Positions 27,001 through 33,000 are shown, numbered from the stretch's first letter. The stretch is DNA of 64,000 bases from an uncultured Planctomycetota bacterium (GCA_963845755.1 CAWJTV010000003.1:128001-192000); one strand, 5' to 3'. Numbers are program-made.

Positions 27001-30000
27001 GCAGGCGGACCCGCTGCAATGACGGGTTAGGCCGGATTCCCCTCAACAGCCCGGAACCGCAACACGAACTCACCGACCTGGAGCTCATCCCCATCCACGA
27101 GGCTGAACGGCAGGACGACCTCCCGACCATTCAGCCGCGTCTGGTATCCCCGCTTCAGCCGACAGCACTGCAGATAGCGACCCTGGCGAGGAATGAACAG
27201 CGCGTGGTGTTTGCCGACCGTCGGGCTGTGGAGGAAGACGGTACACGCACTACAGCGACCGAGGCTCACGAAGTCGTACTCACTCCGGAGCGGGAATACT
27301 CGCCCGGTGTTGTTCCCTCCGATGACCTCAAGCCACAGCATAGCGACCACCTCGCTTGGCCTAACGAAAAAGCTCAGCGGCCCGCCGCAGGCGGGTCCGC
27401 TGGATCGACTTGTTAGCCGCGCCCCTCTCTTTCGGTGTGCCGAAGATCTCGTAAAGGACGCGGTTGTCCAGTCGCCGCTCATCGTTCAGTTGCACGAATT
27501 CGGACCATGGCACCCGACGGCTGGGCGGGTGTCGCGGCTTATTCGAATCGTCGCCCCACCACCAGAGCAATGCGACCGATCCGACCGGGAAGATCGAGAG
27601 GAAGTAACCGACGAAGCGAAGCGGCACCAACCGAGCGGGGCCATCCTCACTCCCGTCAATCGATCCGCAACCGCAGCAACCGTTCGTTATGGAATAGTTC
27701 GGGAATTCGCCCACGCACCAGAGGGTGCCTTCTCCATTCGGAAGTCGGTACGCCGACTGGACCGGGAGTGCCAGGAAATCGGTGCCGGCGTCTTCTCTGA
27801 GCTTGACGGTAAGCTCTATGCAGTCGCACATACGTCCTACGCCGGTCGGGTAAGGAGGTGAGGTTGCCCTCACCCCCTCCCCTCAGAACCGTACGTGCGC
27901 CTTGCGACGCATACGGCTCAAGCCTTCTCGAACGCCCCTCGCGGGACACAGCCCAGTCCGCCAGCCTTCCTCTTGCCGTGGATCTGCCGATGGCAGTGGG
28001 CGTGCAACAACTCCAAGTTGTCGTACGTCTCACCGCCGCCTCGATTGCGCCAGATCCGATGATGAATGTGCCAGGGTTCGTCTTCGGCCTGAAGAGGCTG
28101 CCCGCACATCACACATCGACCCCCTTGTCCCTTCCAGAGATACTCGATCCGGCCTCGACCTGCCAGGGTGTGCGTCAGCTTCCAGGCCGACCTCTCCTCC
28201 AGGTAGAGTTCCCACTCCGGATCGTAGGGGTTGGCCGCACTCCGGATCTTCCTCCACCGCAGGACCTTGACCCCGGCCGCTTTCATCAGCCGGATCCGTC
28301 GCGCCGAGCCCGTGCTGTCACGGATTGTGCCCGTGAAGACCCAGTCTCGGTGGCCCTCGCGCTGGAAGTATTTCCTCTTGATCCACTTCCAGTTCTTCTC
28401 GGGATGGCGTCGGCGACACCATCTCATCAGCTTCCGGAAGATCCGATCGTCCACCGCATGGAAGATGCGCTTACTGACCGCATAACGGTGGTACATGGTC
28501 CAGCCCTTGATCTGTTGATTCAGGCGCCGGATTAAGTCGCCCGCCGTCTTGCCGCCCGAGTCGTCGATCGTCGCCTGGATCTTGGCCAGGAACGTCTTGA
28601 TGCTCCGCTTCGATGGCTTGATCAAGACCTTGCCATTAGGGAAGCGTCGCACCGCCTGTCCCAGGAAATCGAAGCCGTCCTCAAGATGGGTGATCCTGGT
28701 CTTCTCGTGGGAGAGTTCGAGACCCCGCTTTCGTAAGAAGTGTTCCACGAGGGGCTGGACTTCACCTCGCAGGAGGACCCTTGATGTGCCGGTAATGATG
28801 AAGTCATCCGCATATCGGACCAGATGGACCTTGCCTCCCGCACGCCGTCGGCGTGTGTTGCTGAAGCGCCGCTCCAGCAACTCTTGCAACCCATCCAGGG
28901 CCCGGTTCGCCAGCGCGGGGGAGATCACGCCCCCAACAATGTTGCAAAACTGTCCCTGATCCCTGACTCTGTCATTTCCAGATCGCGGCTCCGACCGAAG
29001 TATGGGCAAGGATGGCAGCCCGGGCTCGATCCCCGTCCAAGGCAGGCTGACAGCCGCGGTCTTGGAGAGGATGAGTCAACATGATTACATCTCAACGGAG
29101 GTCAGCCCTGAGCCCTCCCGTCACCCGCCATTTCGAGTTCACCCGGTTTCAGGATGAGGTGATCGCGCTGGCATACCAGGCCTTGATCCCGGTCGTTTCT
29201 CGCCACCTGGAACGGTCGCGATCGCGATCTCACGACAACGAGCAGGCCACCACAACGATGCAGGGACTCCGATCAAAGGCCAGAGGAGCTTGACCAGCCA
29301 TGCTCAATCACGATCTCTGTGTGGGGACCTATGGCCGGGTCTCCGGGGACCAACAGTCCAAGGAGGACACGATCGCCAGCCAGCTTGAGGCGATCAGGCA
29401 GCGCGTCGCGAGCGACGGCTTGGTATGCTCCCCCGAGCTGTGCTTTGTGGACGATGGCTACACCGGGGATACCCTGGTCCGCCCGGGCCTCGAACGACTT
29501 CGGGACCAGGCCGCTGCTGGGACCATCGATCGCCTCTACATTCTCGATCCCGATCGACTTTCGCGCAAATATGCCTACCAGGTTTTGATACTCGAGGAAC
29601 TGGCCCGGTGCGGCGTTGAGGTCGTCTTCCTGCGCAATCCCCTGGGTCACGGACCCGAAGAGAACCTGCTTGTGCAGGTCCAGGGCATGATCGCTGAATA
29701 CGAGCGTGCCAAGATCATGGAGCGGTGTCGCCGAGGCAAGCAGTACGCCGCCCGCCACGGCTCGGTCAACGTGCTCAGCGGCGCGCCGTATGGCTACCGC
29801 TACATCGGCAAGCATGAGGGCGGCGGCGCGGCGCGTTATCAGGTCGTGGCCGACGAGGCGCGGATCGTGCGGAAGATCTTCGGGTGGGTCGGCCAGGAAC
29901 GATGCTCGATCGGTGAGGTTTGCCGACGTCTGCAACGCGACGGCGTCCCCACGCGGACGGGCAAATCGGCCTGGGACCGCTCGGTGATCTGGTCGTATCT

Positions 30001-33000
30001 CAGGAACCCTGCCTACAAGGGGACGGCCGGTTTCGGCAAGACACCACGCGGGCGCCCTCAAGCCGAAGCGGCTGCGCGCGCAACGCGGCCGTCCTGAGCA
30101 GCCCCGGCGTCCTGTCTCTCGGGTCGATACATCCACGCAAGAACAAATCTTCATCGATGTCCCCGGTTTGGTGAGCGAGGAACTCTTCGGGATGGTTCAA
30201 GCTCAAATCGAGGAGAACCGGCAACGCCGGCGCGAACGGCTCCGTGGCGACCGCTATCTCCTCCAGGGGTTAGTTGTCTGCAAACGGTGCGGCTACGGCT
30301 GCTACGGCAAGCCGGTGAGCCGGGCCTCGGCCAAGGGGAAGGTCCCCTACGCCTACTACCGCTGCACCGGCTCCGACGCCTATCGTTTCGGTGGCCAGCG
30401 ACTGTGTTGGAACAAGCAGGTCCGCACGGATGTCTTGGACGCCGCCGTCTGGGAAGATGTGCGTCATCTCTTGTCCGAGCCCGAACGGGTTCGAGTGGAG
30501 TACGAACGGCGGCTGCACGGGCCGGAGACAGGCCCAGACCGCGAGGTGAAGCATCTCAACAAATTGATTGCGAATCTAAAAAAGATGATCGCTCGATTGA
30601 TCGATGCCTACGGCGAGGGATTACTTAACAAGTCGGAGTTCGAGCCAAGGATCTTGGCAGCGCACGAGCGCCTGGCCAAACTGGAGGATGAGTGTCGGCA
30701 GCAGATTGACGAGGCCAACCAGGAAGCCGAACTGCGGCTGGTGATCGGCCAGTTGGAGGAGTTCGCGAGACGCGTTTCCCACGAGTTGCAAGAGCCGGAC
30801 TGGGCCACGCGACGGGCGATCGTTCGGGCTTTGGTGAAGAAGGTCGAGATCGACGAGCAGGAGGTCCGCATCGTGTATCGGATCAGTCCGTCCCCTTTTG
30901 AGGGAGGCCCCCAACAGGGTTCTTTGCAACATTGTTGGGGGCGTGACGATCCCCCCTTGAGGTGTGCCTTCCGTGGTGGCGAACAGGACGTGCTTCTCCA
31001 GGAACCCGGCCTTCAGCCACTTCCGGAGCACCTCCTTGTCCATGGGGATATGGTCGATCAACCAACGATGGCTGATCCGATCAAAGCAGGCTTTGATATC
31101 CCCCTCCAAGATCCAGCTCGGACCGGGCGGACCCCTGAGGATCTTGTGACACTCATCCAGGGCATCGGCACAGCAGCGTTCCAGTCGAAAGCCGTAGGAA
31201 TGGCCGTCGGCGAGGGACTCTGCGATGGGATCGAGGCCCAGCAGGTAGAGGGCCTGCATGGCTCGATCGGCCATGGTAGGAATCCCTAAACCACGTCGCT
31301 GGCCGTTGCTCTTGGGAATGTAAACCCTGCGGAGCGGTTGCGGCCGATAGCCGTGCCGACGCAGGGTGCTGAAGGCCGCCGACTTGACCTCCGGCGTGTT
31401 CCAGAGGATTCCGTCCACGCCGGGGGTCCGCGCACCCGAATTACTGACGACTCGCAAGATGGCCAGAGCCCGGCCACTGTACGAGTGGGTGAGCAGGTAG
31501 ACCAGGGCTTTGGCTTTGTTCCACCTGCCCTCCCGGACTGCCTTTACGATACGCGCTGGAGCCGACGGACCGTGCGCCAGACTTTCTTCCAGGAAATGGA
31601 ATTCCAGTCGGGCGCATGGCCGGGGACCGCACCAACAGGCGTTGCCGCCTGTGCCTTATCTGCTTTGCCCCCTGAGTCAGTTGGCCGAGGTTCTCTCGTA
31701 ACGGAAGACCCGGGGGAAGTCGGCTCCCTTTCGGGCGGGGTGATGTCGCCTGTCGGCTCAACCCCTATCCGACCGGTTAGTGGCCGGCGTTCGCTTCCTC
31801 CCTCGTCCTGTACCCGCCGCCCCATGGGCTCCTCTTGCGAGTCGCCTACCCTCGCGGGGAGGACGACGGGCTTACCACGTTCCGACGATGTGCCAAGGTG
31901 GGGAGGGTCGCCGCTCTTCGCCGGTGGTACGGCATCTGCGCCGGGGAGTTAGGAGCCCCCGGACCTGACCACGTGCCCTTTTGGCCCAAGCGTGACAGCA
32001 TCTTCCGCTTGTTCTCAGTAACGACGTTTATCGCGGCTTCACTTTACGTTAACCCGTCCACCCGATCCTGGTCCCCGACCGCGTTGATGCTGGCAGTCGC
32101 GGCGTCGGCTGGCGCTCCGGCCGCCCTCCCGAGGGAGGAGGATACGTTGTGCCGGGGGCTTGGCACCCCTCCGTTGCCGGAGGCGCACTCCCCGGTGGGA
32201 TACTGCTGGCAGAACAGCAGGTGCTGTCGCCCTCTCCGAGGTCGCAGCACAGTCACATCGGCGACTTCGTGTCGCACCCTAACGCCAAGATCAGCGGCCC
32301 GCCGCAGGCGGGTCCGCTGCATCGCATGGTTAGCCCACGCCACCCGATGGCGTCGATGTTGGCCGGCCTGAATTAAAGCGGGGCCATTCGTCTTCCGGGA
32401 GCAGGCTGTCGCCATCCTGCATACGGAACACACCCGGCCTTGACGCCGTCGGATTCCAGCCTCGACGCAGCCCTTCGAGTATCGCCAGGCGCACTACACA
32501 CGGCAGTATGAGGCGGTGCCCGGCTGACGTAAAGGCCCCGCCGCCAACAGGCACCCAATCGTCGTGGTACTCGAAGCCGACCCAGAGCAATTGCCTCCGG
32601 GAACCTTCCGGCCTCGCGATGAGGGCGATGAAGCCATCGTCGGGCGATACGCGATAGCGGTAGACCACTCCATCGATGGTGATGCGGCGTCGGCTATCCT
32701 TACGGGAACGTCCCATCGGTGCCCTCGCCCTCGCCGGCTAACGCCCAAGATCAGCGGCCCGCGGAGCGGGTCCGCTGCATCGCTTTGTTAGACAAAGCTA
32801 TCCCCTGAACGCGTTGCGTACGGCGACGATCCCGTAGATCCAGCCCCCGGCGACGAACGGTAGTGCGATGCCTTCGACGAACCAAGGCCACGGCCGCTTG
32901 GAGATCTTCTGGATCGACCAGAGCAAGGCTCCTCCGAGAACGAAGAACAGGCACGCCACCCGCAACTTCGTGGCCCACTGAGGATCACCGCGGTTCGCGT

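Follow-up and report, generated by a model that had tools for sequence, protein, structure and literature searches.

Why should a recombinase gene lie in the middle of the reverse transcriptase (RT) gene of a group II intron, at the very point where that gene codes for a conserved motif of the enzyme? The question is raised by a 64,000-nucleotide stretch of DNA from an uncultured Planctomycetota bacterium (hereafter the window), in which an intron of this kind is interrupted by a 2-kb insert. The new analysis indicates that the insert is an IS-sized transposable element whose sole enzyme is a large serine recombinase (LSR). Judging from sequence comparison, it very probably inserts at RT motif 4 of group II introns and thereby lives as a parasite of another mobile element. 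Literature searches returned no published description of such an element.

Anatomy of the element and its host intron

The element occupies positions 28925-30946 of the window (2,022 bp) and is bounded by perfect 24-bp terminal inverted repeats (28925..28948 on the left and 30923..30946 on the right, plus strand). A preliminary description of the locus had recognized these repeats correctly, but it placed the right end at 30937 instead of 30946 and thus arrived at a length of 2,013 bp; all six ranges that it gave are likewise 9 nt short. Read as a recombination site, the left end comprises a crossover dinucleotide, A28924-T28925, and a 23-nt arm (28926-28948), and the dinucleotide at the right junction is A30946-C30947, which reads GT in the sense of the RT gene. 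The right repeat encodes ...LQHCWGR of the recombinase. Inside the right end, within coding sequence, lies a hairpin (30907..30942, plus strand) with an inverted second look-alike of the repeat core. Its arms (inverted repeat I7; 30907-30921 and 30928-30942) are 87% complementary across a 6-nt gap, and the pair, 28 nt from start to start, recurs in the metagenome copies L176-L180.

Open reading frames and domain profiles agree with the earlier claim that the gene content is a 70-aa ORF and a recombinase gene only. The main body of the recombinase gene (29300..30945, plus strand) runs through the right repeat without a stop codon. Its product has the domain order of an LSR, with an N-terminal resolvase-type catalytic domain (Resolvase, PF00239, 6.6e-27, residues 10-154), a Recombinase domain (PF07508, 1.3e-11) and then a zinc ribbon (Zn_ribbon_recom, PF13408, 3.9e-11). 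R13-V14-S15, the region of the serine nucleophile, is invariant across 32 aligned relatives, and the PDB offers matches to the SPbeta and A118 integrases. The gene is under purifying selection, with conservation of 0.93/0.94/0.77 by codon position, and it is intact in 9 of 16 relatives. In the window it falls into two pieces, 29300-30097 (Resolvase and Recombinase) and 30168 onward (Zn_ribbon_recom), with the frame break near 30043-30046. A short-read contig of run X1 differs at this place (30043 A>G, 30045 C>G, 30046 absent) and lacks the window's frameshift; with its letters, the window copy has an open frame of 548 codons within the element.

The 70-aa ORF (29081..29293, plus strand) has counterparts of 66-70 aa in 13 of the 16 relatives, with a conserved core (TRHFEFTRLQxQxIAxAYQxLIPVVSR) and least conservation at the third codon position. 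It matched no Pfam, NCBIfam or PHROGs family, and its AlphaFold2 model is poor (mean pLDDT 57, one helix). The product may be an accessory or directionality factor.

The host runs on the minus strand (27842..32277) and measures about 2.41 kb without the insert, with boundaries taken from comparison with five uninterrupted copies of 98.7-99.7% identity. It is a group II intron both by its ribozyme domains (Rfam RF02012 for D1-D4 at 32071-32221, 100.8 bits; RF00029 for D5/D6 at 27845-27921, 61.8 bits) and by an RT-maturase ORF with RVT_1, GIIM and HNH domains. The insertion divides this ORF into an upstream part (30948..31457, minus strand), which ends in ...EGTPQGGI and covers RVT_1 profile positions 1-123 (2.2e-16), and a downstream part (27921..28922, minus strand), which starts with SPALAN..., covers RVT_1 positions 126-204 and contains the maturase and HNH domains (GIIM 5.3e-24, HNH 6.8e-11). 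At 31555 and 31942, within the RT part, run X1 and the window also differ, each time by an indel of one letter.

The 5' end of the intron (GTGCG at 32277) directly adjoins an attC-like repeat (32278..32336, minus strand; families D1 and D2, CTAAC...GTTAG), as had been proposed for its insertion in an attC site. The repeat is one of an array, next to which lies the gene of an integron integrase (33203..34195, plus strand; TIGR02249, 485 bits against a cut-off of 265), outside the element. Group IIC-attC introns are class C introns that lie directly behind an attC site and whose protein is not known to have an endonuclease domain; the window's intron follows an attC-like repeat beside intI, yet its protein has an HNH domain.

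Target site, core and orientation

The element is present at six places in the 14.3-Mb assembly, at 94.9-100% identity; all 12 repeat arms are accounted for, and the assembly contains no solo element ends. These places had previously been counted as six copies of 95-100% identity. The places and the identity stand, but the number of loci is probably five, since C16:1-5129 equals C24:5128-1 in reverse at 99.79% (6 mismatches, 5 gaps) and both reach contig ends, so that they most likely represent one locus assembled twice. RT motif-4 coding sequence flanks the element at all six places, in RT genes of at least four kinds. The statement that the element always lies within one RT gene nevertheless has an exception in the C6 copy, which is a rearranged junction: on either side of it lies the N-terminal half of an RT gene, the two genes being different and arranged head to head. 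The C3 and C47 copies do have the same flanks and opposite body orientations, as described before; the empty copies of the first intron family number five (two in C41, three in C47) and not four. Across three multi-copy RT families there are 14 uninterrupted motif-4 sites (5, 3 and 6). Empty sites are exact, and one run contig skips exactly 2,022 letters.

The break, earlier placed between codons, lies one to two codons away, inside the Val codon of GGI-V-SPALAN. The core of the preliminary description, namely a serine-recombinase mini-element for which DNA coding for a conserved RT motif is the insertion site, is supported by four separate sequence collections, of which the window's own genome is the first. 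At least one RT motif-4 flank is found at all 16 family loci (15 other genomes); in a species-wide scan with one genome per species, 64 of 81 ends are RT by a strict pattern and 21 of 28 paired elements are properly flanked; and 34 of 42 ends on metagenome contigs are RT. These are not numbers of independent events, since many of the copies involved are related to one another or sit in members of a single intron family. Singulisphaera acidiphila DSM 18658 harbours two copies of the element. Some 10-20% of ends lie outside RT genes, a few copies occupy non-RT look-alike sites (L051/52, L101/102 and L108/109), and about one in seven paired elements joins two RT front halves or two back halves.

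Orientation is random: the RT front half adjoins the left end in 17 cases and the right end in 14. Of the 21 proper pairs, 16 have AT at each junction (eight of these come from one genome), and so do 10 of 17 non-redundant sites, the other seven having mixed or non-AT dinucleotides. At one of the non-redundant sites both junctions read CT, an outcome that a strict matching-core rule would not lead one to expect. For the window's copy, the target core is GT and the junctions read GT and AT. Targets and joined ends match at 8-12 of 24 letters, with G-9, G-8, C+5 and C+6 invariant. The AT at most junctions fits a palindromic 2-bp crossover within perfectly symmetric joined ends, and the two orientations are most simply explained by a site that is symmetric throughout and has AT, itself a palindrome, as its core. 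In a second recombinase element family (2.5-kb type), the target is RT motif 3.

A recombinase gene divided between the element ends

The recombinase gene runs out of the element without meeting a stop codon; the final 52 codons and the stop lie at the opposite end (28926..29084, plus strand), apart from the rest of the gene when the element is integrated. As such, the gene is whole only with the ends joined, at 601 codons. In all 16 relatives the tail frame stays open for 52 codons (51 in one) and contains conserved residues; in most copies, the two alternative frames soon meet a stop. The TGA that ends the recombinase gene (29082-29084) shares bases with the start codon, ATG, of the 70-aa ORF. 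The metagenome protein P0144 crosses the joint unbroken (...QHCWGRDHAPNNVAK...DEST); encoded on a 1,509-nt contig and known here from its protein sequence alone, it is the sole protein that reads across the joint. As DNA, joined ends were seen at one of 41 metagenome loci, L187, where two unlike ends are connected, and the contigs of four sequencing runs compared with the window contained no circle or joint. The preliminary description had missed the continuation of the gene across the joined ends, which the 16 relatives and P0144 reveal.

What the tail does can be approached by a tentative proposal, possible though short of probable, in which the self-split recombinase gene acts as a switch and introns house a guild of LSR elements. 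Specifically, an integrated copy would be limited to a 548-residue enzyme whose tail is read at random from the flank, and the excised circle would make the full 601-residue enzyme and, through the overlap of the stop with the start of the 70-aa ORF, form one closed operon. This built-in switch would tell the enzyme whether it is in the chromosome, where it should excise or stay quiet, or free, where it should integrate. SSV1-type archaeal viruses and phage Mx8 (intP) carry attP inside the integrase gene, these enzymes being tyrosine recombinases of viruses; as in the element, integration splits or alters the recombinase gene, and integrated and free forms encode different proteins. We know of no serine-recombinase gene that holds its own attP, and literature searches found no serine-recombinase counterpart of this layout, a place that the split gene would fill if the proposal is true. 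In that case, at least two unrelated LSR families (at motif 4 and, for the 2.5-kb type, at motif 3) would have converged on group II intron RT genes, introns would be regularly inhabited by a guild of recombinase elements, and these might also be carried along whenever an interrupted intron is copied by RT from elsewhere.

Proposed life cycle, alternatives and known systems

The available data are compatible with a model in which the element excises as a circle, where the two 24-nt repeats would meet in a perfectly symmetric 48-bp site with a central AT. The recombinase would then exchange this joint with a target similar in sequence to the inner part of the joint (...GGNGGNGTG-AT-CTCNCC...), a sequence that encodes G-G-V/I-I/V-S-P of motif 4 in group II intron RTs. 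Given a symmetric site and a core, AT, that reads the same on both strands, insertion could occur either way round; because the exchange would be conservative, excision would restore the RT gene exactly; and because the crossover lies inside the recombinase gene, 53 codons before its stop, integration would cut off the tail. The target is multi-copy, dispensable to the host, kept constant by selection on the RT and carried from genome to genome by the introns, which would make the element a parasite of a parasite.

Copies could also have arisen without any mobility of the element, if it entered one intron once and then spread as cargo, the interrupted intron being copied with RT from sister introns, or by gene conversion. 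Within one genome, the same intron family does host many copies, one metagenome-assembled genome contains eight paired elements with identical flanks, the C3 and C47 copies share the GT/AT junction letters in addition to their flanks, and the near-identity of host introns to their empty sisters (98.7-99.7%) makes gene conversion feasible. Immobility is nevertheless very improbable in view of an element that is 95-100% identical across RT genes differing by 13-65% in protein (only 35-87% identity), that occurs in both orientations within a single intron family and in a few look-alike sites outside RT genes, and whose recombinase is kept by purifying selection; the data already point to element lineages that cross intron lineages. 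A rather different alternative grants mobility but regards the element as a reversible switch, comparable to skin in sigK or SPbeta in spsM, whose excision on cue would restore the RT and toggle intron mobility for the benefit of host or intron. Conservative recombination would restore the RT frame exactly, in keeping with the exact empty sites, the small ORF that is the only companion of the recombinase could set direction, and gene-interrupting LSR elements that excise on cue have been described (PMC5025042, PMC5499854). We consider such a switch highly improbable, as most intron copies are empty, unrelated intron families and non-RT look-alikes are hit, either orientation and rearranged junctions occur, and a regulatory signal was looked for and none found; empty copies, varied targets, orientations and rearrangements fit a selfish element better than a tuned switch.

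Even as a selfish element, the copies in this genome might be dead relics, no longer mobile, given that the recombinase has at least one frameshift at each of the six places, at different positions. However, C16 and C24 differ by five indels in 5.1 kb, some inside the element, which indicates that the assembly itself makes indel errors, and the independent X1 contig carries the 548-codon open frame, so that the sample contains an intact form, though this contig could stem from another copy. Loss of mobility in this genome thus seems unlikely to us, if far from negligible.

The selfish, intron-targeting element resembles the clostridial Tn4451/Tn4453 (TnpX) and Tn5397 (TndX), in which an LSR is the sole enzyme for excision and insertion and the core is 2 bp. 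These transposons excise as circles and their targets resemble the circle joint, where a tnpX promoter is reportedly assembled (Lyras and Rood, 2000). Transposons of this type are 6-21 kb long with cargo and a GA core, whereas the element described here is 2 kb, cargo-free and mostly has an AT core; unlike them, it also has perfect 24-bp inverted repeats, inserts either way round, targets another mobile element and has a recombinase gene that crosses the joint. A precedent for a target in coding sequence is TndX, whose preferred sites encode the conserved Fic domain and whose core is GA (PMC4430133). DUF4368, which marks the TndX-like multi-targeting LSR clade (PMC10083194), had no Pfam match in the window's two recombinase pieces.

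Being IS-sized with a serine recombinase, the element also recalls the IS607 family, whose enzyme is small and carries its DNA-binding domain at the N-terminus and whose members lack terminal inverted repeats and show little target selectivity (PMC6188088). Membership was rejected on an NF033518 score of 29.9 bits against a cut-off of 110 and on the perfect 24-bp repeats. The best NCBIfam matches, XisF (113 bits, cut-off 375) and CcrB (106 bits, cut-off 900), are so far under the family cut-offs that the recombinase belongs to neither family. For many LSRs the target is a single conserved site inside a gene (PMC10083194), and a three-domain LSR with site-specific insertion in coding sequence is shared with serine-integrase prophages and excisable elements found inside conserved genes, namely skin/sigK, SPbeta/spsM, the fdxN element (XisF) and SCC (Ccr). 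Those elements are large, with one site per genome and a fixed orientation, whereas the target of this one occurs in many copies and is mobile itself. IS1111-attC/IS4321 elements sit in transposon ends, and Tn5053 is a 'res hunter'. Together with group IIC-attC introns, which insert into integron attC sites (PMC3001079), they resemble the element in using another mobile element's sequence as a safe, well-travelled landing site; unlike in these systems, the target here codes for a conserved motif of an enzyme, and insertion destroys the enzyme of the host element.

The findings describe a layered parasitism, in which an integron cassette array hosts an intron and the intron, in turn, hosts a recombinase element. 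Each insertion inactivates the intron RT, so the element may limit intron spread, and its junctions between two front or two back halves of RT genes bear on genome rearrangement. The recombinase is a possible tool, being a natural integrase of small size whose site is short, symmetric and well defined and whose target has many variants in nature; it is well suited to studies of site reading by serine integrases, of their tolerance of core mismatches and of how direction is set. The element would represent a further class of bacterial mobile elements, compact and abundant, driven by an LSR and bounded by perfect inverted repeats: in public metagenomes, over 120 protein clusters were found at an identity of at least 78%, many of them on contigs some 2 kb long.

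The element and its host intron

The element is a recombinase-driven transposon, minimal and symmetric, that is aimed at the conserved PQGG/SP motif 4 of group II intron reverse transcriptases (RTs) and whose own gene is split by the recombination site. In the window it spans positions 28925-30946 (2,022 bp) between perfect 24-nt inverted repeats; the preliminary description had delimited the same unit, but its right end, 30937, fell nine letters short of the true end at 30946. The host sequence interrupted by the element is a minus-strand group II intron (27842-32277; ribozyme parts D1-D4 and D5/D6 by Rfam), and translation of the element's flanks gives the halves of one RT-maturase-HNH protein (...EGTPQGGI / SPALAN...). 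The RT front half, upstream of the insertion, is open for only 236 codons in the window, compared with 361 upstream of PQGG in an intact copy on contig C41.

Inside the element lies a 70-aa ORF (29081-29293), and six letters past it, at 29300, starts the gene of a large serine recombinase (LSR), of which piece 1 carries Resolvase and Recombinase domains and piece 2 a recombinase zinc ribbon (Pfam). The small ORF is present in 13 of 16 relatives and matched no known family; its AlphaFold2 model was unusable for a fold search (mean pLDDT 56.7, pTM 0.22), and its look-alikes in the Atlas scored below 0.9 with no family attached. A scan of the element for sigma-70 promoters and terminators found none, which is weak evidence in a planctomycete.

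The start of the host intron directly abuts an attC-like repeat of an array adjoining an integron integrase gene. This integron (24718-32791, integrase gene 33203-34195) has at least eight attC-like repeats (CTAAC...GTTAG, 60-88% alike) and short cassettes. Contigs of the short-read run X1 differ from the window by single-letter indels at 31555 and 31942, in the RT front half, and at 32284-32307, in an attC-like repeat.

BLAST against the 14.3-Mb assembly places the element at six sites (94.9-100% identity), all flanked by RT motif-4 sequence, and a search with the repeat arm returned exactly 12 arms, all from these six places, with no solo ends. The six places reported earlier thus stand, but not as six separate loci: C16:1-5129 is the reverse complement of C24:5128-1 at 99.79% (6 mismatches, 5 gaps) and both stretches reach contig ends, so that, judged from this alignment, the two copies most likely represent a single locus that was assembled twice, leaving five. 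The five indel differences between these ends are evidence, and a direct measure, of indel errors in this assembly. On C6, the front halves of two distinct RT genes, in head-to-head arrangement, enclose the element.

Empty sites accompany the occupied ones. In the first intron family five copies are empty and two occupied, the second has three empty copies besides the occupied C16/C24 locus, and none of the six copies of a third family (GSVASPILAN) is occupied. One X1 contig leaves out precisely 2,022 letters and represents an empty site, as expected from the sister introns. Protein identity between occupied RT genes can be as low as 35-38%, while their elements are 95-100% alike. From these patterns we infer that the element moves.

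Several other mobile sequences lie close to these introns. An insertion sequence of 1.53 kb that shows a target duplication of 9 bp (C16 ~1242-2774, also in C24; further copies on C16, C26 and C40) sits in the same RT gene as the element, about 60 nt upstream of it. A 2.23-kb IS21-like element with two ORFs (nine copies at 99% identity or more, on C6 and in eight other places) lies directly upstream of the C6 RT front half (positions 1-4036 of fetched stretch L001) and also adjoins the C16/C24 intron. On C47 (6643-20446), a stretch of 14 kb holds four copies of the window's intron family, two of them directly adjoining in head-to-tail order, the downstream one without the 60-nt attC-like leader.

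Target and crossover site

The earlier reading of an LSR mini-element that inserts at a conserved RT motif of group II introns is supported, as the target recurs across data sets. When 120 other family genomes were searched at the DNA level, with two candidates scored per genome, 15 proved to hold near-full-length copies (74-91% identity), and at least one RT motif-4 flank was present in all 16 loci read, the window's own included. A one-genome-per-species scan with a 20-letter stretch of the repeat yielded 86 stretches in 22 assemblies, 80 of which were returned as loci; among these assemblies are the complete Singulisphaera acidiphila DSM 18658 and Singulisphaera sp. PoT genomes, the remainder bearing mostly Planctomycetota labels and, for a few metagenome-assembled genomes, other phylum labels (as given). 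Here, 64 of 81 ends match a strict RT pattern and several others resemble RT sequence, while a scan of metagenome contigs (at least 591 stretches, 41 confirmed; a sample, not a census) gave, among the matches listed, 34 RT ends out of 42, with 7 other and 1 too short to score; none of these target counts represents independent events, many copies being related or within one intron family. At one locus of another genome (G033:C5, ~780.3 kb; L023/L099), a second, tandem right repeat follows the element's right end before the RT flank resumes.

The 28 paired elements of the species scan provide a view of the crossover itself. Of these, 21 are properly flanked, three join front half to front half, one joins back half to back half, and three occupy look-alike sites outside RT genes. 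In 16 of the 21 proper pairs (10 of 17 non-redundant sites), AT is present at each junction and a single time in the reconstructed RT codon. The joined ends, i.e. the two terminal repeats brought together, would read ...GTTGGGGGCGTG-AT-CACGCCCCCAAC..., a perfect palindrome, with which the targets share 8-12 of the inner 24 letters (G-9, G-8, C+5 and C+6 are invariant). Such a symmetric site with a self-complementary core accounts for insertion either way round, and orientation relative to the RT front half is nearly balanced (17 vs 14). The same symmetry accounts for how recombination between two copies can invert the intervening DNA, with front-front and back-back junctions as the outcome.

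From the window copy alone, GA and then TC had been considered as crossover dinucleotide; both were dropped because paired elements elsewhere show AT on both sides. The window has a GT target core with junctions GT and AT, and Singulisphaera sp. PoT presents the mirror case, AT and GT. Such mixed junctions would be the pattern left by a tolerated single mismatch that replication later separated, a reading to which one element with CT at both junctions is a misfit. An invertible segment of the Hin/Gin type was rejected, given that the enzyme is a three-domain LSR and the RT gene is broken in either orientation. An assembly artefact as the source of the whole element is ruled out by its occurrence in the complete genomes of DSM 18658 and PoT; the observation of the element is real.

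The recombinase gene at the joined ends

In all 16 relatives, the recombinase frame, which encodes ...QHCWGR, passes through the right repeat without a stop, and database proteins of the family, 548-831 residues long, therefore end in unrelated tails. At the left end, the continuing frame is likewise open in 16 of 16 for 52 codons (51 in one), with conserved residues (HAPNNVAKxSLIPDSVISRxRLRPKYGQGWQPRLD...EEST) and a stop that shares letters with the ATG starting the 70-aa ORF; of the remaining two frames, one ends after 10 codons and one, in most copies, after 13. Codon-phase conservation of the left 150 nt (0.87/0.89/0.92) has a gradient too shallow to prove coding, and the claim that this end is coding draws on the frame being open in 16 of 16 relatives and on one metagenome protein. 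Specifically, a search with the 52 residues among longer proteins had one hit, P0144, a recombinase fragment encoded on a metagenome contig of 1,509 nt, and this protein reads ...QHCWGRDHAPNNVAK...DEST uninterrupted. At least one assembly thus contains joined ends, and the complete gene comes to 601 codons. Among the 41 metagenome loci listed, joined ends occur in L187 only and stem from two unlike elements. There (613-660), a canonical repeat meets a diverged one across a central AT, an arrangement resembling two unlike elements side by side or the insertion of one at the end of the other.

Conservation by codon position (0.93/0.94/0.77) bears the mark of purifying selection on the recombinase, which is intact in 9 of 16 relatives and frameshifted at all six places of this genome. 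Singulisphaera acidiphila DSM 18658 carries two copies, and in at least one of them the recombinase is intact. Run X1 may derive from the source sample; one of its contigs has other letters than the window at 30043-30046, and with these the recombinase frame is open for 548 codons. No circle joint or inversion joint appeared in contigs of runs X1-X4 compared with the window, a result uninformative on activity, as rare forms are lost from contigs and the copies are repetitive.

Known systems and further recombinase elements

By domain content the enzyme is an LSR, with scores far below the XisF, CcrB and IS607 cut-offs; functionally, Tn4451 and Tn5397 are nearest. For TndX of Tn5397, PMC4430133 reports DNA coding for a Fic domain as target and a need for the central GA. 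According to the text of a large LSR survey, many recombinases target one conserved site inside a gene (PMC10083194); RT or intron targets are unmentioned in that text and in eight of its supplement files. No account of a recombinase element within intron RT genes turned up in full-text literature searches, and a preprint about intron-rich genomes that includes S. acidiphila in its list nowhere uses the word 'recombinase'.

Two further types of recombinase element were observed in this genome. One, of 2.5 kb (L001, which is C6:27000-41000, at ~7081-9601; C11:965052-967511; C26:91213-93669), is different from the motif-4 element and encodes a 663-aa LSR that ends in a stop of its own. The copies on C6 and C11 break group II RT genes at motif 3 (..GYF|D.., ..SCF|D..), the C6 copy having TTCGA at each junction, and the copy on C26 occupies a non-RT site. 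Relatives occur in 20 other genomes of the family, and eight loci read among them share the D(L/I)xxxF|D front flank. At G069:C13:337401-342021 (L010, L144), motif-4 and motif-3 elements lie 134 nt apart, as on C6; judged by the front flank there and that of L144, both appear to sit in one RT gene.

The other type, of ~2.1-2.25 kb, has six copies at 97-99% identity (C42:185859-187483, C11:827481-829105, C11:819772-821395, C18:9665-11290, C13:234786-236434 and C20:3518-5140), which are flanked by REP-like hairpins, not RT genes. Its recombinase is 46-59% identical to that of the motif-4 element, its inverted repeats are similar, and its recombinase frame likewise exits through the repeat (..MPHCWGR).
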